A model generated the notes under the pieces. It saw only the letters and a list, made by a program, of their open reading frames with translations. It was not told the origin of the DNA and did no database searches. The position numbers and the translations under genes were made by a program. Source: a virus (taxonomy: Duplodnaviria; Caudoviricetes). From it: a stretch of 64,000 nt of DNA. Location of the stretch: IMG/VR virus record IMGVR_UViG_3300005239_000039, positions 17,625-81,624 of that record. The stretch is one strand, 5' to 3'. Below are positions 1,619-58,814 of this stretch, in pieces (positions within the stretch are counted from its first letter, which is position 1; every line of letters begins with the position of its first letter).

Positions 1619-4600
1619 ATGGCACAAAAGACAAATCTAAACACAACCCCATATTTTGACGATTTTAACGAAAACGATAATTTCTATAAGGTTCTGTTTA
1701 AGCCAGGGTTTCCAGTTCAGGCCCGAGAGTTAAATAATGCACAGTCTATTCTCCAAAATCAAATTGAACAATTTGGAGATCATTTTTTCAAGGATGGTTC
1801 TGTTGTAATTCCTGGTGGACTTACATACGATAGTGAATATTATGCGATAAAGATTAATCCAGAATATCTTGGTGTTTCAGTTTCAACATATGCTAAAAGT
1901 TTTATTGGCACGGAAATTTTAGGACAAACTTCTAGAGTAACTGCATCTGTTGTAAATGTACTATTTGAAGAAGACTCAATCGATAATCAACTGACATTAT
2001 ATGTCAAATATTTAAACTCTAGTGAAGATGGTGCTTTCTCAACATTTTCTGAAAGTGAACTCCTTCTTGGAGAAGAGGATGTAACTTATGGAAATACAAC
2101 TATTTCCCAGGGAGCTCCCTTTGCTCAGGTTGTTGCACAAGATGCAGCTTCTATTGGATCGGCAATTTCTATCGCTGATGGTGTTTATTTTATTCGTGGA
2201 TTCTTTGTAAACGTATCTGCACAAACTATTTTACTAGATCAATATACCAACACTCCAACATATAGAGTTGGTTTAGAAATTATTGAAACAACTGTAAATT
2301 CAAATGAGAATACAAAACTATTTGACAATGCCGCTGGATTTAATAATTTCTCAGCTCCTGGAGCAGATAGATTCAAGTTTGAATTACAACTTTCTAAAAA
2401 ATTATTAACTGATACAGATGACAAATCATTTGTAGAACTTTTAAGACTTGATGGTGGTGAACCCGATCAAGCAGAACCAAAAACTCAATATAATAAAATT
2501 AGAGATTATCTCGCAAAAAGAACGTATGAGGAATCTGGTGATTACGTTGTAGTCCCTATGGACCTCACTATGGATGAGTGTCTAAACGATGAACAGGGTA
2601 ATGATGGCGTCTATGAGCGTACTCAAACCACTAGAGATGGGAATATACCCTCAGACGATTTAATGTGCCTTACAGTAGGTCCTGGTAAGGCATATGTAAG
2701 TGGATATGACATTGATATAACTGGATCAAGAGTTATTGATATTCCCAAACCAAGAGCGACTAAGAAAGTTGATGATTCTTTAGTTTCATTTGATCTTGGT
2801 TCAATTCTATTAGTAGAAAATGTACATGGTACACCAGTAATCGGTCTTGATAAGGATTCCACTCATGTAATTGATCTTTATGATCAAAGAAGAAATAGTA
2901 CTACTGCTGGTACTGGTGAAAAAGTTGGTGAAGCTAGATTATATTCTTTTGCTCCAAGAAATTCATATTCCAATAATAATAGTAATTGGGAACTAAGATT
3001 ATATGATATTCAGACTTACACTGAATTGACTCTGAATGAGGTATATCAATACTCTAAAGGTACTTATTTCAAAGGAAATAGTAGTGGTGCTAGTGGATAT
3101 GCTGCTGAAGCTTGGTCAAGTGGTGATAAAGTAAAACTTCATCAAACTTCTGGAACTTTTGCTGAAGGTGAAACTATCAGTATTGATGGTACAAATGAAT
3201 TTCCAAGAACTATCAAAGATATAATAGTTTATGATATTAATTCAGTAAAATCTGTATATCAGGACGCATCAACTCTTGGTTTAACTGCTGATTTTGTTGC
3301 AGATACACTTCAGAGAGGTAGAGTCGCTCCTAGATTTACTAGAAGGGATACTATTCAAGTTTCTGCTGCAGGAACTGTAACTTCTCCAGGTAATAAGTTT
3401 ACTGGAATTGCAACTAATTCAATTATTAGATATCAAAATCCAGAATATGATAGAGTTGTATTCAACCGTGTAAGTGCAGTTGCTGCTGATGGAAATTCAA
3501 TGACAGTTGTGGCCGTACCAACGGTCGCTGGTGTTGTTACTGGAACTCTACCATCTAGCACAATTGAAACTGGATTTAGAATTGGCGAGACAAGATTTGA
3601 TCAAGGTGATAATGGGGGATCATTATTTTTACCATTAGATCAGGTAAATATTGCATCCGTTGATATTTCTAAATCAAATCTTACAATTTATGAGCAAATA
3701 CTTGCACAATCAACAAATACCTTAGGTGAAATGTCCATCAACATTAGTAATGTTGGTGTAACAAGTTCATTTTTTGATGCCTTTGATGGTGAAAGATATG
3801 TAATAACATATTCAGATGGATCTACCGAAAACCTGAGATCTGAACAGGTTACAATTAATAATGATGGAACTATTGTCTCTTTTACAGGTCTAAACAAAAG
3901 TGAAAGTAATGTTACTGTTCTGGTAACAGCTAAAAAGAAAGGATTGCAATCAAAATTAAAAGAGTGGACAAGAAGTACAAAACTAACTGTAGACAAGTCT
4001 AAATTAAGGAGTTCTGGAATCACTACAGGAACAGTGAATGGAATGACCCATAACGCTTTCTATGGACTTAGAGTTGAAGACGAAGAAATTTCACTGAATT
4101 ATCCCGATGTTGCTCAAATTCTTGCTGTATATGAATCAAAAACATCAGTAGCTCCAACATTAGATGCATTGACATTTGAAACTGGACTTGGATTGGACAC
4201 CAACTCAATTGTTGGAGAATATCTTCTTGGACCCAATAATACTGCTGTAGCACAAATAATTACAAGAGTATCACCAATTAAAGTTGAAGTTGTATATCTG
4301 AATGATGAGAGATTCTCTGTGGGCGAAACTCTCACATTTCAAGAATCTAGAATTGAAGCAACTATTCAGTCAGTCCTTGATGGTAGGTATGTAGATCTAA
4401 CTGAGCAATATGTTCTTGATGATGGTCAAAGACCAGATTTCTCTGATTATTCAAGATTGGTTAGAGTTGAAAATAAAGTTCCAACAAAACAATTGTTAGT
4501 TATTTTCAATCATTATACTATCCCAGATAGTGATGATGGTGATGCTTTTACTGTATTATCTTACGGTGCAGATAGATTCAAGAATGATATACCAGATATT

Positions 4601-12778: not shown

Positions 12779-13192
12779 ATGCCTAAATCATTCGATAAAA
12801 TTAGTGATTCTTTGAATACTGAAACTGATATTATAGATATCACTCCCAAGGAATCTGAAATTATTCCAGTTGTTTCTGATGAAAGAATTGAACAGTCTAA
12901 AAAAGACTATGAATATACAAGAGGGAATCTTTATTCTTTAATTGAAAAAGGTCAAGAAAGTTTAAACGGAATTATGGAATTAGCTCAGGAGTCAGATTCT
13001 CCTAGAGCATATGAAGTTGCTGGACAGATTATAAAAAGTGTTGCAGATACAACTGATAAACTTATAGATCTGCAGAAAAAAATGAAGGAACTAAATAAAG
13101 ATGAGGACTCTGGTCCAAAATCTATTACAAATAATTCATTATTTGTAGGATCTACGGCAGAGTTAGCAAAATTTCTTAAGAGTCAGAAATGA
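12779..13192 (+). CDS. g16: Terminase small subunit gp16
   Basis: DYEYTRGNLYSLIEKG, SPRAYEVAGQIIK, NNSLFVGST. Confidence 0.9.
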   Translation: MPKSFDKISDSLNTETDIIDITPKESEIIPVVSDERIEQSKKDYEYTRGNLYSLIEKGQESLNGIMELAQESDSPRAYEVAGQIIKSVADTTDKLIDLQKKMKELNKDEDSGPKSITNNSLFVGSTAELAKFLKSQK

Positions 13193-14946
13193 ATAGGTTT
13201 TTCAAAGAAGAAATACCGAATATGTCTGTAGGTGATGGTGGTTATTCCTCAGGGGGTGCATCACTTTCTCAAGCTGGTTTTGACTCTAAACTATGGAATT
13301 ATGCTGTCGATCAAGATTTTCAAACACCTGATGAATCTGGATTAAATAAATGGAGATTTTCCAACGTATATCCAGTCTCAAGATTGTCAATGAAAAATGT
13401 TGATAACATGGTCAAATCTTCTAATAGATTTGTAAAAATAATGGATGAAAGGAATCGGGAGCAAGTAATGAACAATTTACAAAGCGGTCTTTCTGAGGAA
13501 ACTGCCAAATGTAAAACTGGTTATTACTATTGCTTTACAGATAAAAAATGTAAGAAGATTCCTATGGGTCTTTACGTTGGTCGCGGTGGTTATCTTTCAA
13601 AAGATAATGACGACAGTGAAAATAAAAAGAAAAATGGTAATGGTAATGGCAACGTTTCTAATGGTAATGGTTCCAATGGTAATGGTGGTGCTGTAAGTGA
13701 AGAAGGGCTACGTGATTGGTTTGGTAAATCTAAATCAAAAGGTGGCAAAGGTGGATGGGTTAATGTTGTAACAGGTGGAACCTGTGCAAGTGACAAACCT
13801 CGGGAAGGAACTCCTAAGTGTGTTTCCTCAGAAAAAAGATCAAGTATGACTAAATCAGAAAGACTTTCTGCCCAAAAAAGAAAGAAAGCAGCAGATCCTG
13901 GCCAACAACAAAAATCTGGTGCAGCAAAACCAACTTACGTTCCTACTGACAAAAAGAAAATGAAGGAAGAAAAACTACTATCAGTTTCAGAAGCAAAAGA
14001 TAAAAAAAGTAAAGGTAGTGGAACAAAAGACGCTTGTTATCATAAGGTCAAGTCTCGTTATTCTGTATGGCCCTCTGCTTATGCTTCTGGTGCTTTGGTA
14101 AAGTGTCGTAAGGCTGGTGCTGCTAACTGGGGTAATAGCACAAAAGAAGAAACAGAGATTGGTGAAGCATGTTGGAAAGGTTATGAGAAGAAAGGCATGA
14201 AGACTATGTTTGGAAAAAGATATCCAAACTGTGTCAAGAAAACTAAGAAAGAAGATGTAAATCTTAGTGATAATCTCAATCTACATGTAGAGGGTATGGG
14301 AAATGTTCGCTATTGCCCTCAGTGTGAAAAGAATGAGACTAGAGAAGAGTGTTCATATGGACCAAAAAACTGGGATATGAATTCAAGTCCTGTTGCTCTT
14401 GGATCAAATACATTTGATATTTCTTCTGTTACTCCATCAAATGAAGAGTATGTTGAAGAAAAATATGAAAGAATTCAAAAAATGGGAAGAACTTATACAA
14501 TGTTTTTTACCTTTAGAGGTCAGTATAAGTCACTTCAATTTTTCTTTCCAACATCAAAGAGACCTTCTAGAGAAGATGTATTAATTCAACTCAGAAAAAT
14601 TTTTCCTGAAGCTGTATTGGTAAATTTCTTTGAAAGAGATCGTATTGAAAGTGAACCGCTTGTAACTGTAGAAGGTGTTAAAAGTTTTGGAAATTTCATG
14701 ACAGAAGGTGCAGCATGGACTAAGAAGTCTGGTAAGAACAAAGAAGGTGGTCTCAATGAAAAAGGACGTAAGTCTTATGAAAAAGAGAACCCTGGTTCTG
14801 ATCTGAAAGCACCTTCTAAGGAAGTAGGTAACAAGAGAAGAGCATCATTCTGTGCAAGGATGAAAGGAATGCGTAAGAGACAAAAACCTTCCAATAACAC
14901 AGGCGATGATCGTCTGTCAAAATCACTAAGAGCCTGGAATTGCTGA
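13189..14946 (+). CDS. Modular basic protein; putative capsid-internal polyprotein
   Basis: 585 aa of short Lys-rich, Cys-paired modules separated by xEE or xxE sites. Inserted between g16 and g17. Confidence 0.75.
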   Translation: MNRFFKEEIPNMSVGDGGYSSGGASLSQAGFDSKLWNYAVDQDFQTPDESGLNKWRFSNVYPVSRLSMKNVDNMVKSSNRFVKIMDERNREQVMNNLQSGLSEETAKCKTGYYYCFTDKKCKKIPMGLYVGRGGYLSKDNDDSENKKKNGNGNGNVSNGNGSNGNGGAVSEEGLRDWFGKSKSKGGKGGWVNVVTGGTCASDKPREGTPKCVSSEKRSSMTKSERLSAQKRKKAADPGQQQKSGAAKPTYVPTDKKKMKEEKLLSVSEAKDKKSKGSGTKDACYHKVKSRYSVWPSAYASGALVKCRKAGAANWGNSTKEETEIGEACWKGYEKKGMKTMFGKRYPNCVKKTKKEDVNLSDNLNLHVEGMGNVRYCPQCEKNETREECSYGPKNWDMNSSPVALGSNTFDISSVTPSNEEYVEEKYERIQKMGRTYTMFFTFRGQYKSLQFFFPTSKRPSREDVLIQLRKIFPEAVLVNFFERDRIESEPLVTVEGVKSFGNFMTEGAAWTKKSGKNKEGGLNEKGRKSYEKENPGSDLKAPSKEVGNKRRASFCARMKGMRKRQKPSNNTGDDRLSKSLRAWNC

Positions 14947-15269
14947 TGAAAAACTTTAAACAATTCATGTCAGAGTCAGTCAATATCTCTGGCGACTTCA
15001 ACGGAAACCTATACATCAACTCTCAAGATCAACAATCTCAAGAGGAAGTTGGTGAGAGTTATGTTGCCGATATCACTTGGCAAAATAGCATATATAGAAT
15101 TGAGATGGTAACAAAGACTGGAATACCATCAAAGCAAGAATTGGCTGAAAAACTTCAGAGTGAATATCCTGGTGCAATGGTACATAACATCTATCCAGTA
15201 GAAGAAAAGAACTTTAATATTAAAAACGCAAAAAGATACCACCCTTCAAAACTGGAATGGATTGACTGA
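14946..15269 (+). CDS. Hypothetical protein with capsid-targeting-like N-terminus (MKNFKQFMSE)
   Basis: ATG overlaps the upstream TGA. 107 aa. Confidence 0.75.
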   Translation: MKNFKQFMSESVNISGDFNGNLYINSQDQQSQEEVGESYVADITWQNSIYRIEMVTKTGIPSKQELAEKLQSEYPGAMVHNIYPVEEKNFNIKNAKRYHPSKLEWID

Positions 15270-15271
15270 TT

Positions 15272-16547
15272 ATGGCACAGTGGAATAAGACTACTCAAGA
15301 CTTCTTGAATCAAGAGAGAAGTCTCTTTGAGGTTTATAATATCGCAGATCACTGGGGAAACCAGACGGACTGGAGACCTCAGTTTTCTAATAATAATAGA
15401 TTAAAGGTTTCTCCATATCAAACAGTCTTCTTCAATACCTTTCAGTACGGCAAAGAAACTGATGTATGGGATGAAAGATTAGTCGGAGTCGGTGCAACTG
15501 CTACCTTTAATGCATCATCCAGTAATGTAGTAATGGAGGTTGGTTCTGCTGCTGGTAGTAGTGTAGTTCGTCAGACCAAGAATGTAATGAGATACATTCC
15601 TGGTAGATCAACTACTCTTACATTTTCAATTCGTCTTGATACTCCGCAAGTTGGTATTCGTAGAAGGTTTGGATTGTTTGACGAGAATAATGGAGCTTAT
15701 TTTGAGGATGATGGTGGAACTTATTCTTATGTAATTCGTAGTAATACGACAGGTATTGTTAGTGAAAGAAGAGTATACAGAGACGATTGAACGGTGAGAG
15801 TTTGATGGTAATGGATATACTGGTGTAACTGCTGATCCAACAAAACAGCAGTTGATTTCCATCAACTATGAGTGGTATGGTTCTGGTCTTGTAGAGTTTG
15901 CATGGTTAATGAAAAATGAGACAATTCCGTCTCATACATTTGAGAACTCAAATACTTTCGATACTGTTTGGTGTTCTACTCCATTCTTACCCATTCGTGT
16001 TCAGATTGAAAATGTAACTGGTGTTGCTGGAACTCATTACATATATCAGGGTTCTAATTCTCTGATTCAAGAAGGTGAACCAGAGAAACTTGGTATTCTT
16101 GAAAGTATTTCTAATCCAATTACTGGTACTACGATGTCAGCAGCAAATACTTTTTATCCAGTTGTAAGTTTAAGATTGAAAGATAGTCAGTTAGCTGCTG
16201 TTGCTCTGATTAGATCTCTACAAGCAGCAACGAATGATAATACTAATATCTATTGGAGATTAATTGAGAACCCAACTCTAACTGGCGCAAGTTGGACAGA
16301 TGATCCAGATCCAAACTCCTTTATGCAGTATGACACAAGTGCTACTGCCATGACTGATGGAAATATTATCTTGAGTGGATTTACAATTTCTGGTGGATCG
16401 GCTCTAACTAATATTGATGAAAAAGCACAACTACAAATTGGTAGAAGTGGTATTGGTACTATAAGTGATATCTACACTCTTGCTTGTGCATCACCTAATA
16501 CTAATAAAAAAGCACTTGGCATATTGAACTGGATTGAACAAAGGTAA
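15272..16547 (+). CDS. Conserved cyanophage protein (about 425 aa) split by two apparent 1-nt deletions near 15789-15800
   Basis: ORFs 15272-15790 and 15852-16547 join as ...RDDWNGEKFDGNGYTGVTADPTKQQLISINYEW if one G (tga>tgg a) and one A (gagag>gagaag) are restored. The frame offset of -2 matches. Confidence 0.7.
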
Positions 16548-16553
16548 TTAATT

Positions 16554-18200
16554 ATGAGTGAAAGCATTTATCTTGGTAATCCTAATCTAAAAAAAGCAAA
16601 TACAAAGATTCAATTTTCTGAAGATGATATTCGGGAATTCTTGAAGTGTAAAAAAGATCCTGTATACTTTGCTAAAAATTATATTAAGATCGTTTCTCTA
16701 GACGAAGGGCTTGTACCATTTAAGATGTACAAGTTCCAAGAGAAACTTGTAAAAAACTTCCATAAGAATAGATTCAACATCTGTAAGATGCCACGTCAGA
16801 CTGGTAAGTCTACAACATGCGTGTCTTATCTACTTCATTATGCCGTCTTTAATGATAATGTTAATATTGCCATCTTAGCAAACAAAGCAGCTACTGCAAA
16901 AGATCTTCTTGGAAGGTTGCAACTTGCATATGAAAATTTACCAAAGTGGATGCAACAGGGTATTGTTTCTTGGAATAAACAATCATTAGAATTGGAGAAT
17001 GGATCTAAAATCATAGCTGCATCTACATCTGCATCTGCTGTTCGTGGTGGTTCTTATAATATTATCTTTCTTGATGAGTTTGCTTTCATTCCAAATCACA
17101 TTGCTGATCAATTCTTTGCCTCTGTTTATCCCACTATCTCGTCTGGTAAAAACACCAAGGTAATTATTGTTTCAACACCACATGGTATGAATCACTTCTA
17201 CCGAATGTGGCATGATGCAGAAAGAAGTAAAAATGAATATATACCAACTGCAGTACACTGGTCTGAAGTTCCTGGAAGGAACGCTAAGTGGAAAGCTCAA
17301 ACTATTTCCAACACATCAGAGCAACAGTTTAAAGTTGAGTTTGAATGCGAGTTCTTAGGATCTGTTGATACTCTTATTGATGTAACTAAACTAAAGAATT
17401 TAGTATATGATGATCCAGTAAAAAGAAATAAAGGATTAGACATTTATCAAGATCCTATAAAGGATCATAATTATATGATGACGGTTGACGTTGCTAGAGG
17501 AGTAGAACGTGACTATTCAGCTTTCATTGTATATGATATAACACAATTTCCATATAGGATAGTTGCAAAATATAGAAATAATGAAATAAAACCGATGGTA
17601 TTTCCAAGTATCATCAAACAAGTTGCAGACGGATATAATCAATCATATGTTTTAGTTGAAGTCAACGATATTGGTGATCAAGTTGCATCTATTCTTTATT
17701 TTGATCTTGAATATGAAAATTTGCTAATGTGTTCTATGAGAGGTAGAGCAGGGCAAGTAGTTGGATCTGGATTTTCTGGCAAAAAATCTCAATTGGGTGT
17801 CAGAATGACATCAGCAGTAAAAAAATTGGGATGTTCTAATTTAAAAACTTTATTGGAAGATGATAAACTCATAACAAATGATTATGATATTATTTCTGAA
17901 CTAACTACGTTTGTTCAAAAGAGACAATCATTTGAAGCTGAAGAAGGATGTAATGATGATCTAGCGATGTGTTTAGTCATATTCTCATGGTTAGTTGCAC
18001 AAGATTATTTCAAAGAAATGACTGATAATGATGTTCGTAAAAGAATTTATGAAGAGCAAAAAAATCAAATCGATCAAGATATGGCTCCGTTTGGTTTTAT
18101 CTCTGATGGTCTAGATGCTGTAAGTGAAGTTGATAATGATGGAGATAGATGGTTTGCCGATGAATATGGTGATAGATCATATATGTGGGATTATAAGTAG
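16554..18200 (+). CDS. g17: Terminase large subunit gp17
   Basis: Walker A region PRQTGKST, Walker B IIFLDEFAF, nuclease motifs TVDVARG and NDDLAM. Confidence 0.95.
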   Translation: MSESIYLGNPNLKKANTKIQFSEDDIREFLKCKKDPVYFAKNYIKIVSLDEGLVPFKMYKFQEKLVKNFHKNRFNICKMPRQTGKSTTCVSYLLHYAVFNDNVNIAILANKAATAKDLLGRLQLAYENLPKWMQQGIVSWNKQSLELENGSKIIAASTSASAVRGGSYNIIFLDEFAFIPNHIADQFFASVYPTISSGKNTKVIIVSTPHGMNHFYRMWHDAERSKNEYIPTAVHWSEVPGRNAKWKAQTISNTSEQQFKVEFECEFLGSVDTLIDVTKLKNLVYDDPVKRNKGLDIYQDPIKDHNYMMTVDVARGVERDYSAFIVYDITQFPYRIVAKYRNNEIKPMVFPSIIKQVADGYNQSYVLVEVNDIGDQVASILYFDLEYENLLMCSMRGRAGQVVGSGFSGKKSQLGVRMTSAVKKLGCSNLKTLLEDDKLITNDYDIISELTTFVQKRQSFEAEEGCNDDLAMCLVIFSWLVAQDYFKEMTDNDVRKRIYEEQKNQIDQDMAPFGFISDGLDAVSEVDNDGDRWFADEYGDRSYMWDYK

Positions 18201-21579: not shown

Positions 21580-23241
21580 ATGGCGAGACTTTTTGGATTC
21601 TCTATTGAAGATAACGAAAAAAAATCTAAAAGTATAGTGTCCCCTGTCCCCGTGAATAACGAGGATGGGGTTGATCATTATATTGCTAGTAATTTTTATG
21701 GTCAATATTTGGATTTAGAAGGTGTATATAAATCAGAGTTTGAATTAGTAAAAAGATATCGTGAAATGGCGCTTCATCCAGAAGCAGATACTGCGATTGA
21801 AGATGTTGTAAATGAAGCTATTGTCAGTGATCTCAATGACACTCCTGTTACTATCAATCTTGATAACCTTCCAGCTAGCGATGGTATTAAGAAAAGAATT
21901 AGAGAAGAATTTAAAGTAATCAAAGACTTAATGAACTTTGATGCTAAATCACATGAAATTTTTAGAAATTGGTATGTTGATGGAAGACTTTATTATCATA
22001 AAGTAATTGATATTAAAAAACCTGAAGAAGGCATTCAAGAACTAAGATATATTGATCCTCTTAAGATGAGGTATGTTCGTGAAGAAAAAAAATCTAAGCA
22101 AGATAATAATGGTAATGCAGTTTTTAGAAATCCAAACGGAATTGCTCAAAAGGAAGTAGTTCAGTTTCCTGAAATTGAAGAATACTTCATGTTTATGCCA
22201 AGACCAACTTATGCTGGTGGAATGGGTGATAGATATTCTGGAACAAAGGGAATTAAATTTTCTAAAGATTCAATCACATATTGCACGTCTGGTCTTGTAG
22301 ATAGAAACAAGGGTATAGTTCTTTCATATCTACACAAAGCAATCAAGTCACTCAATCAACTCAGAATGATTGAAGATTCTCTGGTCATCTATAGATTATC
22401 TAGAGCTCCAGAGCGTAGAATTTTCTACATTGATGTTGGTAATCTTCCTAAAATAAAAGCGGAACAATATCTAAAAGATGTAATGAACCGCTATCGTAAT
22501 AAGTTGGTTTACGATGCATCGACTGGAGAAGTTCGTGATGATCGTAAGCATATGAGTATGCTTGAAGATTTCTGGTTGCCTCGTAGAGAGGGTGGTCGTG
22601 GTACAGAAATTACCACACTTCCTGGTGGTCAAAATCTTGGAGAACTCAGTGATGTTGCTTATTTCCAAAAGAAACTATACAGATCATTAAGTGTACCTGA
22701 ATCCAGAATTGGTGCTGAGGGTGGATTTAATCTTGGTCGATCCAGTGAAATTTTGAGAGATGAACTCAAATTCTCTAAGTTTGTTGGTCGTTTAAGAAAG
22801 CGTTTCAGTAATATGTTTATTGATATGCTTAAGACTCAGTGTCTTTTAAAGAATATCTGTACACCCAAAGACTGGGTATCACTTGAAGAGCATATTCAAT
22901 TTGATTATATCTACGATAATCATTTTGCCGAACTTAAAGAAAAAGAATTATTGGAAGGTAGAATGAGTTCTGCTCAATTAGCAGAACCATTTCTTGGAAA
23001 ATATTATTCTGTTGAATATCTTCGCAGAAAAATTCTACATCAAACCGATGAAGAAATTATTGAAATTGATGAACAGATTCAAAAAGAAATTCTTAGTGGA
23101 ATTTTACCTGATCCAAATGCACCTGTAGATGAAATGGGAAATCCAATTCCACAGGATTCTACTGGAATGGGCGAGATTCCTATGGATGAAAATCCAGATG
23201 ATAGTGCATCCGAAGCCGATGGTCGAGCTGCTGAGATATAA
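21580..23241 (+). CDS. g20: Portal protein gp20
   Basis: YRLSRAPERRIFYIDVGNLPK, EDFWLPRREGGRGTEITTLPGGQNLG. Confidence 0.97.
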   Translation: MARLFGFSIEDNEKKSKSIVSPVPVNNEDGVDHYIASNFYGQYLDLEGVYKSEFELVKRYREMALHPEADTAIEDVVNEAIVSDLNDTPVTINLDNLPASDGIKKRIREEFKVIKDLMNFDAKSHEIFRNWYVDGRLYYHKVIDIKKPEEGIQELRYIDPLKMRYVREEKKSKQDNNGNAVFRNPNGIAQKEVVQFPEIEEYFMFMPRPTYAGGMGDRYSGTKGIKFSKDSITYCTSGLVDRNKGIVLSYLHKAIKSLNQLRMIEDSLVIYRLSRAPERRIFYIDVGNLPKIKAEQYLKDVMNRYRNKLVYDASTGEVRDDRKHMSMLEDFWLPRREGGRGTEITTLPGGQNLGELSDVAYFQKKLYRSLSVPESRIGAEGGFNLGRSSEILRDELKFSKFVGRLRKRFSNMFIDMLKTQCLLKNICTPKDWVSLEEHIQFDYIYDNHFAELKEKELLEGRMSSAQLAEPFLGKYYSVEYLRRKILHQTDEEIIEIDEQIQKEILSGILPDPNAPVDEMGNPIPQDSTGMGEIPMDENPDDSASEADGRAAEI

Positions 23242-23731: not shown

Positions 23732-24382
23732 ATGAAACTTATTAGAGAAGAGATCGAACAGGTTGAAATTATCGTTGAGCAACGCAACGGTAAAAAGAAT
23801 CTGTATATTGAAGGAGTTTTCCTTCAGGGTAATATGCCCAATAGAAACAAGAGAATGTATGACTGCTCTCTTCTAGAAAGAGAAGTGGGACGATACAACG
23901 AAAACTTTGTATCTAAAGGCAGAGCTCTTGGAGAATTGGGACACCCTGATGGCCCTTCTATCAATCTTGATCGAGTTTCCCATAAGATTGTTTCTCTTCA
24001 AAGAGAAGGAAATAATTTTATTGGTAAGGCAAAAATTCTTTCTACCCCAATGGGTAAAATTGCCGAATCTCTTCTAAATGATGGTGTCAAACTCGGAGTT
24101 TCTTCTCGCGGAATTGGAACACTTTCTCCTACTAAAGAAGGATATAGTTTGGTTAATGATGACTTTGCTTTAGCAACTGCTGCTGATATTGTAGCGGATC
24201 CTTCCGCACCTGATGCTTTTGTTGACGGTATTATGGAAGGTAAAGATTGGGTTTGGGATGGAGGAATTCTCCGCGAAAAACTTGCAGAAAGAACCTACAA
24301 GCAAATTAATACTTTGGTTGATCAGAAAAAATTGGAAGAAAATAAAATTAATCTATTCCAAAATTTTCTATCAAGTTTATAA
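23732..24382 (+). CDS. g21: Prohead protease gp21
   Basis: ALGELGHP, LGVSSRGIG, DIVADPSAPDAFV. Confidence 0.95.
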   Translation: MKLIREEIEQVEIIVEQRNGKKNLYIEGVFLQGNMPNRNKRMYDCSLLEREVGRYNENFVSKGRALGELGHPDGPSINLDRVSHKIVSLQREGNNFIGKAKILSTPMGKIAESLLNDGVKLGVSSRGIGTLSPTKEGYSLVNDDFALATAADIVADPSAPDAFVDGIMEGKDWVWDGGILREKLAERTYKQINTLVDQKKLEENKINLFQNFLSSL

Positions 24383-25447: not shown

Positions 25448-26869
25448 ATGTATAACAATCCCCAATTAATGGAGAAGTGGGCACCTCTCCTAGACTACGA
25501 AGGAAGTGATCCTATTAAGGACAACCATCGTAGAGCTGTAACAGCCCAACTACTTGAGAACCAAGAGCGTTTTCTAAACGAAGAGCGTGCTTTCTCTGAG
25601 GGTTATGACCTTCAAGAAGCAACCCCCACCAACTCATTCTCCACAGGTGGTGGTTCATTCTATCGTGGTTCTGGTGGTACTGACAGTGGTTCACCCACTG
25701 GTGGTTTCGATCCAGTACTAATCAGCCTCATCCGTCGCTCCATGCCCAACTTGGTCGCTTATGACCTTGCTGGCGTACAACCAATGAACGGTCCTACTGG
25801 ACTTATCTTCGCAATGCGTTCTCGCTACGAGAACATGACTGGAACCGAAGCTTTGTTCAACGAAGCAGATTCCGCATTCTCTGCACAGAACTCTGCAGGC
25901 ACTGCAACTCAGGGCGACTACACTGGTGGTACTGACGGCGCAGGTAACGTTGGTTTCGGTACAACCCTACAACGTGGTTCTAATCCTGGTGTTCTTGATC
26001 CTAATGCTGCTCCTGCAACATACGGAGTCGGTCAAGGCATGTCAGTCACCAACTCTGAAGCCCTAGGCGAGAGTGGAACTGACTTCAACCAGATGGCATT
26101 CTCAATCGAGAAAGTCACCGTAACCGCTAAGTCCAGAGCACTCAAGGCTGAGTACTCCTTGGAACTTGCACAAGACCTTAAGGCAATTCACGGCCTTAAT
26201 GCTGAAGCAGAACTTGCTAACATTCTCTCAACTGAAATCCTTGCGGAAATCAACAGAGAAGTTATCAGAACTATCTACAAGACTGCTGAAGCTGGTGCTC
26301 AACTCAACACCGCTACCGCTGGTCAGTTTGACCTTGACATCGACAGCAATGGTCGTTGGTCCGTTGAGAAGTTCAAAGGACTCCTCTTCCAGATCGAAAG
26401 AGATGCCAACCAGATTGCACAAAGAACTCGTAGAGGAAAGGGTAACATCATCCTAACTTCTGCTGATGTTGCTTCTGCTCTAACCATGGCTGGTGTACTT
26501 GATTACACCCCTGCACTTAACGCCAACCTTAACGTTGACGACGCTGGCAACACCTTTGCTGGTACTATCAACGGTAAGTATAAGGTCTACATCGATCCTT
26601 ATGCTTCAAACAATACTGCTCTTCAGTATTACGTTGTTGGTTATAAGGGTACTTCACCTTATGACGCAGGACTATTCTACTGCCCATACGTTCCTCTTCA
26701 GATGGTTCGTGCAGTTGGACAAGATACCTTCCAACCCAAAATTGGCTTTAAGACCCGCTACGGCATGGTCGCAAACCCATTCGCACAAGGAACTGATCAA
26801 GGCGTCGGTGCTATCAGCGCCGCATCTAACCGCTACTACAGAAGAGTTTCTGTTAAGAACCTTATGTGA
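25448..26869 (+). CDS. g23: Major capsid protein gp23
   Basis: DPVLISLIRRSMPNL.AYD..GVQPMNGPTGLIFAMR, SRALKAEYSLELAQDLKAIHG, FQPKIGFKTRYG. Confidence 0.98.
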   Translation: MYNNPQLMEKWAPLLDYEGSDPIKDNHRRAVTAQLLENQERFLNEERAFSEGYDLQEATPTNSFSTGGGSFYRGSGGTDSGSPTGGFDPVLISLIRRSMPNLVAYDLAGVQPMNGPTGLIFAMRSRYENMTGTEALFNEADSAFSAQNSAGTATQGDYTGGTDGAGNVGFGTTLQRGSNPGVLDPNAAPATYGVGQGMSVTNSEALGESGTDFNQMAFSIEKVTVTAKSRALKAEYSLELAQDLKAIHGLNAEAELANILSTEILAEINREVIRTIYKTAEAGAQLNTATAGQFDLDIDSNGRWSVEKFKGLLFQIERDANQIAQRTRRGKGNIILTSADVASALTMAGVLDYTPALNANLNVDDAGNTFAGTINGKYKVYIDPYASNNTALQYYVVGYKGTSPYDAGLFYCPYVPLQMVRAVGQDTFQPKIGFKTRYGMVANPFAQGTDQGVGAISAASNRYYRRVSVKNLM

Positions 26870-55065: not shown

Positions 55066-56178
55066 ATGAAAAACTTTCTAGCGTTTATCACAGAAGCATC
55101 GAGAGCCGCCACCCAAGCAAAGGCGATGGGCTTGACAGGAGATGGTCATGGGGACTATTATGATAAGGATGGAAACCTTATCGCTAAAACTGTGCGCGGT
55201 CAACTGAAGATCTTCCAAAAGAAAACCAAAACTCCAGATCAAGAAACTCAGAAACAACAAACTCAACAGGAACCAGATAATGCTCCACCCGTTGAGAAGA
55301 CAAAAGGAGCACTCACCATAGGATTTGGACGTTTTAATCCACCTACAACTGGTCACGAAAAATTAATCAATAATATCAGGGCTACTGCTGGTCAAGGCGA
55401 ATATAAAATTTACCCTTCACATAGTGAAGATCCTAAGAAAAATCCTCTGGATTCAATCACTAAAGTTGAATTCATGAAGACGATGTTCCCTGATCATGCC
55501 AATAATATTGTGCATGATACTAAGATGAGAACCATCTTTGATGTTCTCAAGGGAGCGCACAATGATGGTCATACTGAAGTAAATATCGTTGTTGGTGCTG
55601 ATCGTCAAGCAGAATTTGAGAACTTGGCTAATAAGTATAATGGTAAGTTGTATTCATTTGAGAAGATCAATGTAATTTCTGCTGGTGATCGTGATCCAGA
55701 TTCTGAAGGTGTGGAGGGAATGTCTGCATCTAAAATGAGAAAGGCCGCTGCAGAAGGTGACTTTGATACTTTTGCATCTGGGCTTCCTGGAACAGTGAAA
55801 CCTAAAGATGCAGAGACAATGTTTTTGACTGTTCGTCAAAGAATGGGCATCGAAGAGGGATATGAACTTTGGGAGATTGCACCTAAGTATGATTGGAGAG
55901 GTCTAAGAGAAAATTTTGTTCTTGGAAATGTATTTAAGGTCGGTTCTTTAGTCGAGAATCTAGTAACTGGTTTTATTGGAAAAATTATTAGAAAAGGAAC
56001 AAATCATATTATATCTGTGACAAAAGAGGGATACTTATTCAAGTCCTGGATTAAAGATGTAAATGAAGTGCATGAGATTGGAACTGATTCCTACCGTGAA
56101 TATGTTCAAGGAATGTCTCCAAGAGAGAAAGTTCAGTCATTTATAAATAAAAGTAAGAAAAAGCGTAACCGTAATTAA
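55066..56178 (+). CDS. HIGH-family nucleotidyltransferase ('cytidyltransferase') with capsid-targeting-like N-terminus
   Basis: FGRFNPPTTGH, VVGADR, SAGDRD, SASKMR. N-term MKNFLAFITE. Confidence 0.85.
   Translation: MKNFLAFITEASRAATQAKAMGLTGDGHGDYYDKDGNLIAKTVRGQLKIFQKKTKTPDQETQKQQTQQEPDNAPPVEKTKGALTIGFGRFNPPTTGHEKLINNIRATAGQGEYKIYPSHSEDPKKNPLDSITKVEFMKTMFPDHANNIVHDTKMRTIFDVLKGAHNDGHTEVNIVVGADRQAEFENLANKYNGKLYSFEKINVISAGDRDPDSEGVEGMSASKMRKAAAEGDFDTFASGLPGTVKPKDAETMFLTVRQRMGIEEGYELWEIAPKYDWRGLRENFVLGNVFKVGSLVENLVTGFIGKIIRKGTNHIISVTKEGYLFKSWIKDVNEVHEIGTDSYREYVQGMSPREKVQSFINKSKKKRNRN
56142..56149 (+). promoter_or_regulatory. Late promoter TATAAATA
   Basis: Exact consensus 34 nt upstream of the ATG at 56184. 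Confidence 0.75.
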
Positions 56179-56183
56179 AGACG

Positions 56184-57467
56184 ATGAATAGAACTTTTTT
56201 TGAAGATCTACCCGCAAGAAAGGTGGGAGGCCCTGTAGTATCTGCTGGTGGTCCCGAAAAACCCGCTGCTAAAAGTGATGCCGCTTCAGATGAAGGTGGT
56301 AATACTGAAGAAAAATCTGCTAAAAAGATTCGTCAGGCTGTATACGATATTAGATATCGTGCTCGTAGAGAGGGTGTTGATATAAAAGCGGCATATGGCC
56401 AATACATGGGTAACACAACTATGACTGGTCCTGAAAAGGATGCTGTCAAGCAGAAATTATTTGGTGAGGCATACAGTCCTATTCAAAAACAAATTATTGC
56501 AAACAAAGAAGAAACTATTAAAAAGATCAAGGGTACTTTTGAAGGACCTAATCACGATAAAAATAAGTACGGTGAACCTGTAGAAGAAGAAGTCAAAGGC
56601 GAAGGTAGTAATAAGAAATTTAAGGTACGTGTAACGGATAAAACAAGTGGTAGAACTTATGTTCGTTTTGCCGATAGAGAAAAAATCGGATCACTTCGTG
56701 CCAATCCAAATATCAAATCTGTTGAAATGACAGAATATGGATCACCTTATGAAGGTGAGGCTAAGAAAGGTGAACAAACTGCTGATACGAAATCTGGTAA
56801 AGGTCTAGATCCAGTTGGTAAGGAAGATGGTGATGTTGATAATGATGGTGATAAGGATAAGTCAGATAAGTATCTTCTAAATCGTCGTAGTAAAGTTAGT
56901 GCGGCAATCGCTAAGAATGAAGAAGTTGAGCAAGTTGATGAAGTTATTGGTGGTAAACCTGGAGACGGATATATTGGTCATCCCAATCTAGATATTAAAA
57001 ATCCACTTGCTAAGAAACAAGTTAAGAGTCCCACTGGTAATACTGGACTTGCTGGCAAACTTGGTGATAGAAAGATGAGGATTGATAAGATGACTAATCA
57101 AATGCTCAAGCAATCTGTCGAGCATGAAGGTGAACAGATTCATGAATTGCTAGGACCTGAAGCTGCAGGAAAGGCAGATAGGTTCATGAAGAAAGTTCAA
57201 GGTGGTATGGAGCGAATGGGTATCAAGATCAATCGTGTAGAGAAGGGCACTGCTCGTCCATCTGCTAAAACTAAAGATACTATTCGTCAGAATAAGCAGA
57301 GTAACGAAGAGTTTACTTATAGAGAAGTCTCTAAGTTCAACAACTGGAGAGAAGAATTTATATATGAAATGGGTGATGAAATGGACTCTGACACTGAATA
57401 TAAAGTAAAGGAAAAGAAAGTCAAAAATAAAGTAATTATCAATCCTAAGCAAGGTGGGCAATCCTAA
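56184..57467 (+). CDS. Modular charged protein; putative capsid-internal protein
   Basis: 427 aa with many EE or xxE boundaries and a DxDxDG loop. Confidence 0.7.
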   Translation: MNRTFFEDLPARKVGGPVVSAGGPEKPAAKSDAASDEGGNTEEKSAKKIRQAVYDIRYRARREGVDIKAAYGQYMGNTTMTGPEKDAVKQKLFGEAYSPIQKQIIANKEETIKKIKGTFEGPNHDKNKYGEPVEEEVKGEGSNKKFKVRVTDKTSGRTYVRFADREKIGSLRANPNIKSVEMTEYGSPYEGEAKKGEQTADTKSGKGLDPVGKEDGDVDNDGDKDKSDKYLLNRRSKVSAAIAKNEEVEQVDEVIGGKPGDGYIGHPNLDIKNPLAKKQVKSPTGNTGLAGKLGDRKMRIDKMTNQMLKQSVEHEGEQIHELLGPEAAGKADRFMKKVQGGMERMGIKINRVEKGTARPSAKTKDTIRQNKQSNEEFTYREVSKFNNWREEFIYEMGDEMDSDTEYKVKEKKVKNKVIINPKQGGQS

Positions 57468-57791: not shown

Positions 57792-58814
57792 ATGGCTCTT
57801 TGGGGAAATAACGATAACATCACCCATAAGGCGGCAGGCACGGTCACTCTGACGTACAACACTGGAGCCGTGGTTGGTTCGGGTACAAGTTTTGGCGTGA
57901 CTGGATTCGCTCAGGAAGGAGATATCATCCGATTTGGGTATAGAGGCGAAGATGGCGTCTATTTTGGTGATGCTGTAATTAAGACAATTACTAATGCAAC
58001 TAATCTAACTATTGGTTCAACTGCTGGTTTGAGTGGTGTAGCTATTGCAGGAACCACTTTTTATATTTCACAGTTGCCTAAGTCTACTGTTCTTGACCAT
58101 ACTTATAGTAATAAGCACGACACTGCTGCTTCCTATCAGCAGTTTAGAGTCAGAGAAGCACTAGAAGATGCTGCTATCAATACTAAGGATCTAGGTATTG
58201 ATGCCACTGACCTTGGAGTCAATGATGCTGTTGAAAACGGTGGAACTGATCTAATCATCACTGGAATTGGCACTGCATTTAGAACAGTTGCTGCCAACAA
58301 TGCTGCTGGAATCGGTACTGATATTGTATTCATTACTGGCGGTGCTCCTTCTGGTATCTTTGCTAACAGTGGAGACACTATTCTAGCAACAACTGGTGGT
58401 TCTGCTGCTGAAGTTGCAATTCTATCAATTGGAGCAACTTCTGTATCCTTAGCATCAACAATTTCTTCTGCTATTAGTGCAGGAACTGCAGTGAAATTCA
58501 CCAGCAATTCTAACCGTATGGTCAGTTTTGCTTCTACCATTCTCTCTGCAGTTTCAGTTGGCGATAGAATCATCGTCAAGAGACTTAAAGGTGGTTATGA
58601 CAGGCAGGTTTATGGTATCGATGAGGCCCTAACTATTGGTGGTCAGGAATCTGCAGATGTCAATAAGAAGTATACTGCTCCTGGATCTGGATGGGTTGGT
58701 GTTACAACTTACATCGACTGTCATGGTGAACTAAGAGTTAAGAAAGAGATTCTCGTTGCTATGTCTGGTATTACCACTGGAGCAAATGGTATTCTCTATC
58801 CTACGCCTCAGTAA
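57792..58814 (+). CDS. Virion structural protein (MALWG... family)
   Basis: MALWGNND N-term, GWVGVTTYIDCHGELRVK.EILVAMSGI C-term, G/T/A-rich beta composition. Confidence 0.7.
   Translation: MALWGNNDNITHKAAGTVTLTYNTGAVVGSGTSFGVTGFAQEGDIIRFGYRGEDGVYFGDAVIKTITNATNLTIGSTAGLSGVAIAGTTFYISQLPKSTVLDHTYSNKHDTAASYQQFRVREALEDAAINTKDLGIDATDLGVNDAVENGGTDLIITGIGTAFRTVAANNAAGIGTDIVFITGGAPSGIFANSGDTILATTGGSAAEVAILSIGATSVSLASTISSAISAGTAVKFTSNSNRMVSFASTILSAVSVGDRIIVKRLKGGYDRQVYGIDEALTIGGQESADVNKKYTAPGSGWVGVTTYIDCHGELRVKKEILVAMSGITTGANGILYPTPQ

Follow-up and report, generated by a model that had tools for sequence, protein, structure and literature searches.

The modular open reading frame

The window analysed here is a stretch of 64,000 nucleotides (positions 17,625 to 81,624) from the 81.6-kb IMG/VR record IMGVR_UViG_3300005239_000039, which represents an uncultured T4-like cyanomyovirus. 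Between g16 and g17, it carries an open reading frame (ORF) coding for a basic protein of 585 amino acids (aa) that is composed of short modules. We propose, with a probability of about 0.6 and on the basis of sequence comparisons, that this protein is a head-internal cargo polyprotein that would be loaded into the head and cut by the prohead protease. The gene order around the ORF is g13-g15, g16, the 585-aa ORF, a 107-aa gene, a split virion-structural gene, g17, an endonuclease VII gene and g18, and the window continues beyond g18 with g20, g21 (prohead protease), g22 and g23. The ATG of the ORF overlaps the g16 stop codon by 4 bases. The features of the ORF, including isoelectric points (pI) of the predicted pieces, are as follows, where a slash marks a known or predicted cut.

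12779-13192: g16 (PHROG 445)
13189-14946, + strand: modular basic protein, 585 aa, T4-GC119 (Sullivan 2010), PHROG 727/3477, C-terminal DUF6321
13189-13209, + strand: 7-residue leader MNRFFKE/, ending in hydrophobic-x-Glu and loosely resembling a T4 capsid-targeting sequence
13210-13497, + strand: module N, residues 8-103, 96 aa, pI 5.0, no Cys, ends LSE103/
13498-13701, + strand: module A (3 Cys) and an Asn/Gly-rich linker, residues 104-171, 68 aa, pI 9.0, ends VSE171/
13702-13968, + strand: module B, residues 172-260, 89 aa, pI 10.1, Cys199/Cys211, ends MKE260/
13969-13992, + strand: 8-residue spacer EKLLSVSE268/
13993-14166, + strand: module C, residues 269-326, 58 aa, pI 9.6, Cys283/Cys306, ends IGE326/
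14167-14460, + strand: modules D (Cys328/Cys348) and E (Cys376/379/388), residues 327-424, 98 aa, pI 5.9, ends VEE424/
14461-14706, + strand: module G, residues 425-506, 82 aa, pI 9.7, no Cys
14680-14706, + strand: KSFGNFMTE506/, the last 9 residues of module G, with T4 capsid-targeting spacing
14707-14943, + strand: module F, which is DUF6321, residues 507-585, 79 aa, pI 10.4, Cys555 and the C-terminal Cys585
16554-18200: g17

An earlier reading made from the sequence alone had divided the ORF at short Glu-containing motifs and had described most of the resulting modules as Lys-rich, with 2-3 Cys each. Every motif and Cys pattern that it listed is present in the translation. The motifs are LSE103-E, VSE171-E, MKE260-E, TKE320-E, IGE326, SNEE/YVEE (417-424) and FMTE506, and the 14 Cys residues lie at positions 108, 115, 121, 199, 211, 283, 306, 328, 348, 376, 379, 388, 555 and 585. 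The protein is also basic and Lys-rich as described, with a pI of 9.57 and 75 Lys versus 33 Arg. The expectation of about 7 peptides agrees with our parse into seven predicted pieces of 58-98 aa, plus short peptides of 7 and 8 aa; five of the seven have a basic pI (9.0-10.4).

In Pfam, the only domain recognized is DUF6321 (PF19846) at residues 515-583 (E 2.5e-21; 76.5 bits versus a gathering cut-off of 28.5). Different parts of the protein give 11 PHROG matches, all to families of unknown function. When PDB sequences were searched with a profile of 76 aligned relatives, the best result was one match with an E value of 1. Look-alikes in the ESM Atlas are viral, function-unknown proteins with scores of at most 0.79, and these provide a lead only.

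Module shuffling among marine phages

Relatives of the 585-aa protein are very common. All 8000 scored candidates of similar length passed, as did 7751 of 8000 shorter ones. A match is found in 465 phage records, nearly all of them from phages that infect Synechococcus or Prochlorococcus, with 6 from Pelagibacter phages. The ORF is matched by S-SM2 gene 109, P-SSM4 gene 160 and S-SM1 gene 115 in tblastn and HMMER searches, and the records label all three T4-GC119, which has been described as "a hypothetical protein" of a possible mobile cassette (Sullivan 2010, PMC3037559). Syn9 gp114 is another relative. No relative of the 585-aa protein was found in S-PM2, and therefore the S-PM2 proteome is uninformative for this family.

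Relatives were searched with the query modules N (residues 1-100), A (104-135), B (172-236), C (276-316), D (325-352), E (366-400), G (418-497) and F (503-585). The sequence-only reading had left it to other phages to tell whether modules are shuffled or stand alone, and both situations occur. We count 36 architectures among 240 relatives, which indicates that modules are shuffled, duplicated and lost, and free-standing copies with leaders also exist. The most common architectures are A-B-C-D-G-F (71 relatives), B-D-C-F (38), B-C-D-F (23) and B-C-F (15). Module N occurs in only 8 of the 240, seven times as N-A-B-C-D-E-G-F and once as N-A. In some relatives, other domains such as DUF192 sit between modules. 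Modules C and D alone match 3657 clusters at 50% identity, and free-standing DUF6321 proteins number 3090.

Strong conservation is evident within the modules. Across the 76 aligned relatives, Cys199/211, Cys283/306, Cys555/585 and Glu171 are invariant, and Cys108/115/121 and Cys328/348 are nearly so, while Glu260 is kept in at least 90%. Some phages distribute the modules over separate genes. In S-SM2, module N is a gene of its own that starts MKTLKQFLKE/. In P-SSM4, modules C and D are separate from A-B-F, and neighbouring genes start MLSFKSF... and MLSFKAYLAE/.

The P-SSM4 family gene adjoins a cytidyltransferase cluster rather than lying between g16 and g17. This bears on the earlier argument that a position between g16 and g17 fits loading into the head. 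The interval is a known hot-spot that also carries zwf, gnd, petE and PTOX (PMC3037559). Because of these other occupants, and because the P-SSM4 gene lies elsewhere, the position provides no evidence for head loading and we have abandoned this argument.

Glutamate-specific joints

T4 gp21 cuts after L/I-x-Glu, and Asp at the cut position blocks processing (PMC9026906). In the 585-aa protein, each of six module anchors (N, A, B, C, D and F) has a hydrophobic-x-Glu site 1-5 residues upstream, an outcome seen in 0 of 20000 random placements of 13 sites; this test is not fully blind because the anchors were picked after the family alignments had been seen. Relatives keep a hydrophobic-x-Glu before each module, and the linkers surrounding it are unrelated. 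Among 36 non-redundant relatives, modules A, B, D and F start 91 times, and in 73 of these cases a hydrophobic-x-Glu has its Glu 1-4 residues upstream (random mean 7.5, maximum 17 in 2000 trials). For module C, a hydrophobic-x-Glu occurs within 18 residues of the start in 32 of 32 cases.

An independent set of 147 representatives of the clusters matching C and D reveals the same arrangement. Counting each distinct 20-residue upstream context once, Glu is found at position -2 in 114 of 153 contexts before module D and in 24 of 32 before module F. The 65 contexts before module B have Glu at -3 (33 contexts) or at -2 (11), giving 44 together. The joint before module C is more distant, with Glu at -15 in 58, at -14 in 12 and at -13 in 8 of 115 contexts. 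The background in this set is 0.0225 hydrophobic-x-Glu sites per residue.

The joints also discriminate between the two acidic residues. The ratio of hydrophobic-x-Glu to hydrophobic-x-Asp is 502:18 at the joints, versus 1989:1270 elsewhere in the same proteins. This corresponds to an odds ratio of 17.8, which is conservative because "elsewhere" still includes other joints. The preference for Glu over Asp at the predicted cut sites matches the specificity of T4 gp21.

Leaders resembling T4 capsid-targeting sequences

The internal proteins of T4 carry a leader of 10 residues in which position 4 is aromatic, position 7 is Phe, position 8 is hydrophobic and position 10 is Glu, and the cut falls behind a hydrophobic-x-Glu. 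We take IPI, which begins MKTFKEF..., to be cut further on, after ITE. IPII and IPIII begin MKTYQEFIAE/A (leaders from NC_000866). Targeting depends on positions 4 and 7 of the leader, and processing on positions 8 and 10 (PMC9026906).

The same pattern recurs here on free-standing module copies, on the product of the 107-aa gene that follows the ORF, and internally at residues 498-506. The internal example, KSFGNFMTE, lies directly before DUF6321 and has the full leader spacing, and variants of this nonapeptide recur in relatives.

14946-15269, + strand: 107-aa gene (PHROG 1742), start MKNFKQFMSE/S with the full leader pattern; its start overlaps the stop of the ORF by 1 base

From 133 relatives of the 107-aa gene, 80 viral loci were kept, and the leader M-K-[SNTR]-[FY]-x-[QEK]-F-x-x-E is present in 80 of 80. 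In 21 of these loci, the gene follows one with a DUF6321 tail. A profile of 104 G modules matches the 107-aa gene family with a probability of 96.3% in hhalign (E 1.7e-9), and therefore module G exists at the locus both in the chain and as a free-standing copy with a leader. Pairwise BLASTP of module G against the 107-aa gene gave no match, and the relation is seen only by profile-profile comparison.

Free-standing DUF6321 proteins provide further examples, as judged from the best 120 of the 3090 (45-146 aa). A strict T4-like leader is present on 39 of these 120, and on 12 of the 15 that come from contigs longer than 45 kb. A Glu lies within 3 residues of the module start in 113 of 116 proteins, and a full hydrophobic-x-Glu is present in 88 of 116. 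Leaders of this kind include MKTYNDFITE/ (S-CREM1 gene 179) and MKTFKEFQE/. The strict pattern is rare as background, occurring in 1 of 135 ORFs of the window and in 2 of 362 ORFs in 150 kb of S-SCSM1 DNA, and all three are candidate cargo proteins.

Leaderless copies in podoviruses

DUF6321 is also found in podoviruses, and in the two examined it lies just after the major capsid gene.

1417-1671 of the stretch examined: P-SCSP1o gene 14 (Autographiviridae)
1333-1617 of the stretch examined: HTVC103P gp74

In these proteins (84-94 aa) the module comes first, with no leader ahead of it, and hydrophobic-x-Glu is absent from the whole sequence. In P-SCSP1o, a small basic neighbour protein contains a module that bears a leader in myovirus-type contigs, and here it also lacks one. 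T7-like phages are not known to have a prohead protease. DUF6321 may be a virion-associated basic protein in podoviruses as well.

Within DUF6321 of the myovirus type, the tripeptide LNE (residues 522-524, 14752-14760) is nearly invariant, and the corresponding residues of the two podovirus copies are LTA and LNA. LNE524 might represent an additional cut site or a chance occurrence.

The prohead protease and virion proteomes

The phage encodes its own gp21 orthologue, located 8.8 kb downstream of the 585-aa ORF, together with a gp23 that carries a comparable site.

23732-24382, + strand: gp21-type prohead protease gene (PHROG 207 head maturation protease, E 6.2e-80)
25610-25618, + strand: LQE57 of gp23 (gene 25448-26869), aligned with LTE/A of T4 gp23

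The LQE/A site to which the sequence-only reading had pointed in gp23 is indeed present as LQE57/A58. The window sequence ...YDLQE/ATPTN aligns with ...SFLTE/AEIGG of T4. The aligned LTE/A bond is presumably the cleaved one of T4 gp23, after residue 65, which a search of PMC3012670 did not confirm.

The occurrence in virions that was anticipated for the 585-aa protein has a parallel in two relatives, both of which have been detected there. ORF29 of S-SCSM1, with the module order A-B-C-D-E-G-F, is flagged "virion protein" in its record, and the S-SCSM1 paper marks proteins detected by mass spectrometry in CsCl-purified particles as virion proteins (PMC9602691). ORF137 of S-CREM2, located between terS and terL, has modules G and F in common with the query (E 3e-12 and 1e-10); its product was identified in virions by 4 unique peptides at 4.1% coverage (Table 3, PMC10665884). 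Its 16 theoretical tryptic peptides of 7-30 aa cover 175 of 490 residues. Such low coverage could reflect retention of a single fragment or poor detectability of the protein, and we give it no weight. GenBank annotates T4-GC119 genes as "similar to Synechococcus phage S-SM1 protein", which may point to the S-SM1 virion proteome, but the S-SM1 record carries no virion flag and we do not count this label as evidence either.

These proteome data are relevant to two alternatives. The protein might instead be a processed core or scaffold-like component with a role in assembly, cut by gp21 in the manner of T4 gp22, gp67 and gp68, with most of its fragments leaving the head. In T4, core proteins are indeed cut into many fragments that mostly exit (PMC9026906), and the coverage of ORF137 is low when compared with the 10-46% of most other virion proteins in the same table (Table 3, PMC10665884). 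However, a Lys-rich sequence can also cause low coverage. Moreover, the strong conservation of modules B, C and F, together with their invariant Cys pairs, would suit folded products that persist, and the free-standing copies resemble T4 internal proteins, which remain in the head. We therefore regard an assembly role of this kind as unlikely.

The protein might also be a cytoplasmic DNA-binding protein made during infection, with its detection in virions caused by carry-over, a hazard about which the authors of a cyanophage proteome study have warned (PMC12801897). However, two independent preparations of virions purified on CsCl each yielded a relative, the gene lies within the structural array and overlaps the g16 stop, and copies of its modules bear T4-like targeting leaders. 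Thus, carry-over is a highly improbable explanation.

Two further virion proteins are of note. The gene between terS and the family gene in S-CREM2, ORF136 (3802-4515 of the stretch examined), codes for a basic protein of 237 aa that starts MQTFSMFFSE/D and was identified in virions by 8 peptides that cover 24.1% of it (PMC10665884). S-SCSM1 ORF93 (91626-91835) is a 69-aa "virion protein" in which a leader-like sequence, RTFKEFLEYIE, lies at the C-terminus instead of the N-terminus.

Weighing the interpretation

The proposal of a cargo polyprotein, first made in the sequence-only reading, retains its core and loses its argument from gene position. It draws strong comparative support from the modular build of the protein, the conserved Glu-specific joints, the leaders on free-standing copies, the gp21 orthologue and the relatives found in virions, to which the leaderless podovirus copies can be added. 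A T4-type internal-protein system with chained cargo units is the most economical explanation.

Several observations weigh against this interpretation. The strict hydrophobic-x-Glu count of the 585-aa protein is not above chance (13 versus 10.46 +/- 2.71 in 5000 shuffles, 22% of which reach 13), and the raw number of sites was therefore dropped as evidence. Since the strict sites FPE474, FFE482 and LNE524 lie inside conserved modules, the motif alone cannot define the cuts. The joint statistics, including the odds ratio of 17.8, overstate independence because the sequences are related, even with each identical context entered a single time, and thus the p-value for Glu versus Asp is not a true probability. 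In the start of the protein itself, MNRFFKE, residue 4 is Phe and residues 5-7 form a hydrophobic-x-Glu, which falls short of the full T4 spacing. Moreover, a strict T4-like leader is present in only 3 of 240 multi-module relatives, most of which start directly at module A, and the entry of chains without an N-terminal leader into the head is not accounted for. S-SCSM1 ORF30 has a perfect leader, yet carries no virion flag. The podovirus control consists of only two phages. The ESM Atlas model of the whole protein is poor, with a predicted local distance difference test score of 0.53 and a predicted template modelling score of 0.19. Finally, both cleavage within the family and the specificity of cyanophage gp21 are predicted from sequence alone.

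Some of these points would be expected if the protein were an uncleaved multi-domain virion protein, organized like beads on a string and acting as an intact chain, for example as a DNA-binding thread. The joints would then be linker or boundary features, or relics of fused leader-bearing genes. Flexible chains of many domains are expected to give low-confidence models, and the missing N-terminal leaders, the motif count and the predicted status of the cleavage all accommodate an intact chain. However, a relic would be expected to erode, whereas most distinct contexts have kept the joint. Neither helix caps nor generic acidic linkers would be expected to require the Glu-specific ratio of 502:18 against 1989:1270, and the same modules occur in two podoviruses without the joint. 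On balance, we think it improbable that the chain remains intact.

For the favoured cargo polyprotein, the sequence of events would be as follows. The polyprotein would be made with the structural proteins and taken into the core of the assembling prohead. There the gp21-type protease would cut after the Glu of the hydrophobic-x-Glu joints to yield N, A, B, C, D+E, G and F along with two short peptides. We infer that the basic pieces would stay with the packed DNA, like the Lys-rich internal proteins of T4, and that the Cys pairs might form disulfides. That the modules contact DNA is a guess favoured by their Lys-rich basic composition, and an effector role in the host, with injection of the pieces, is likewise a guess from sequence.

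Comparison with known systems

The closest parallel is provided by the T4 internal proteins. In both systems the proteins are small, basic and Lys-rich, and a gp21 orthologue is encoded in the same phage. In T4, diverse cargo follows a conserved leader, and the lysines of the internal proteins contact DNA phosphates (PMC3012670); diversity behind a shared leader is found here likewise. In contrast to T4, however, one ORF here strings many modules together, with a cut signal at every joint, most of these chains have no N-terminal leader, the modules have conserved Cys pairs, and the system is known through its sequences. Profile searches of Pfam, PHROG and PDB found no homology to IPI, IPII or IPIII. 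Because sequence homology was not found, we class the protein as working like the T4 internal proteins rather than as a member of their family.

Other T4 head proteins, including gp22, gp67, gp68 and Alt, are also single polypeptides with several L/I-x-Glu sites that are cut inside the prohead (PMC9026906). Their fragments are mostly discarded scaffold or terminal propeptides, whereas the pieces predicted here are conserved, shuffled modules that also exist as separate genes. In the giant phages phiKZ, 201phi2-1 and SPN3US, many inner-body and ejection proteins are processed behind a Glu by a gp21-related protease (gp175/gp245) that recognizes a very short motif, and some of the products remain with the DNA (PMC9026906). 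However, that motif is S/A-x-Glu, the proteins are large and unrelated, the phages belong to another lineage, and no chained mini-modules are described in the parts of that review covered here (PMC9026906).

The C-terminal module is a member of DUF6321, a family with no known function, and a full-text search found no literature that names it. Within the literature covered, which did not extend to subscription papers and supplements, we found no report linking a capsid-targeting sequence to cyanophages. The nearest was a T4 review in which "cyanophage" appears only in the title of a reference.

A leader-bearing cytidyltransferase

A gene elsewhere in the window carries the same type of leader.

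55066-56178, + strand: cytidyltransferase (T4-GC190/NMNAT family), start MKNFLAFITE/A, T4-like leader

Orthologues start MKKFSAFLKE/A in P-SSM4, MKSFLQFLKE/A in S-SCSM1 (annotated NMNAT) and MKNFSSFLTE/A in S-CREM2. The enzyme has been reported in virions of S-SM1 (PMC3037559), S-SCSM1 (PMC9602691) and S-CREM2 (Table 3, PMC10665884), and the S-SCSM1 record also flags its orthologue as a virion protein. The T4-like leader would explain this presence in virions, and the cytidyltransferase is probably head cargo.

Adjoining this gene at 56184-57467 is a Lys-rich ORF of 427 aa with 59 Lys, a pI of 9.2 and 10 hydrophobic-x-Glu sites. Its start, MNRTFFE/D, is much like the MNRFFKE/E of the 585-aa ORF. 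Its positional counterpart in S-SCSM1, ORF92, carries a "virion protein" flag.

Other features of the locus

Regulatory signals around the ORF are inconspicuous. The late-promoter box TATAAATA occurs 6 times in the window versus 5.47 expected, and none lies just upstream of the 585-aa ORF. A scan of the window for sigma-70 promoters and terminators was also at chance level. Because these scans were at chance, the only basis for calling the ORF a "late gene" is the packing of the genes and its 4-base overlap with g16. Although the window total is at chance level, the TATAAATA boxes at 23237, 24385, 56142 and 57750 shortly precede gene starts, namely those of a small ORF after g20, of g22, of the ORF at 56184 and of an ORF at 57792.

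The virion-structural gene downstream of the 107-aa gene is split. ORFs at 15272-15790 and 15852-16547, in different frames, match two halves of the PHROG 1645 virion structural family (profile positions 1-185 and 208-439). Relatives in this family are single genes of 1275-1278 bases, versus 1276 in the window. The split represents a frameshift, which is either real or an assembly error.

Implications

Internal head proteins with a targeting leader constitute a classic T4 system, and none of the literature covered carries it over to the T4-like cyanophages of the ocean. In its most far-reaching form, which we consider doubtful but conceivable, the proposal describes a combinatorial cargo system in T4-like cyanomyoviruses and some pelagiphages. 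Thousands of shuffled mini-modules, many of them with Cys pairs, behind a shared grammar of leader and Glu joint would be set free inside the head and enter the host along with the DNA. Oxidation in seawater would turn the Cys pairs into disulfides, which would be reduced again in the host cytoplasm, making the modules redox-armed early effectors or anti-defence factors rather than mere counter-ions of DNA.

If the cargo interpretation is true, it would explain why a cytidyltransferase/NMNAT enzyme appears in three cyanophage virion proteomes. It would also give a function to an extensive family of marine viral proteins now called "hypothetical", which comprises the 3657 C and D clusters and the 3090 free-standing DUF6321 proteins. 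Furthermore, a simple rule that combines the leader with the Glu joint would predict the packaged proteins of uncultured T4-like phages, together with their exact cut positions.

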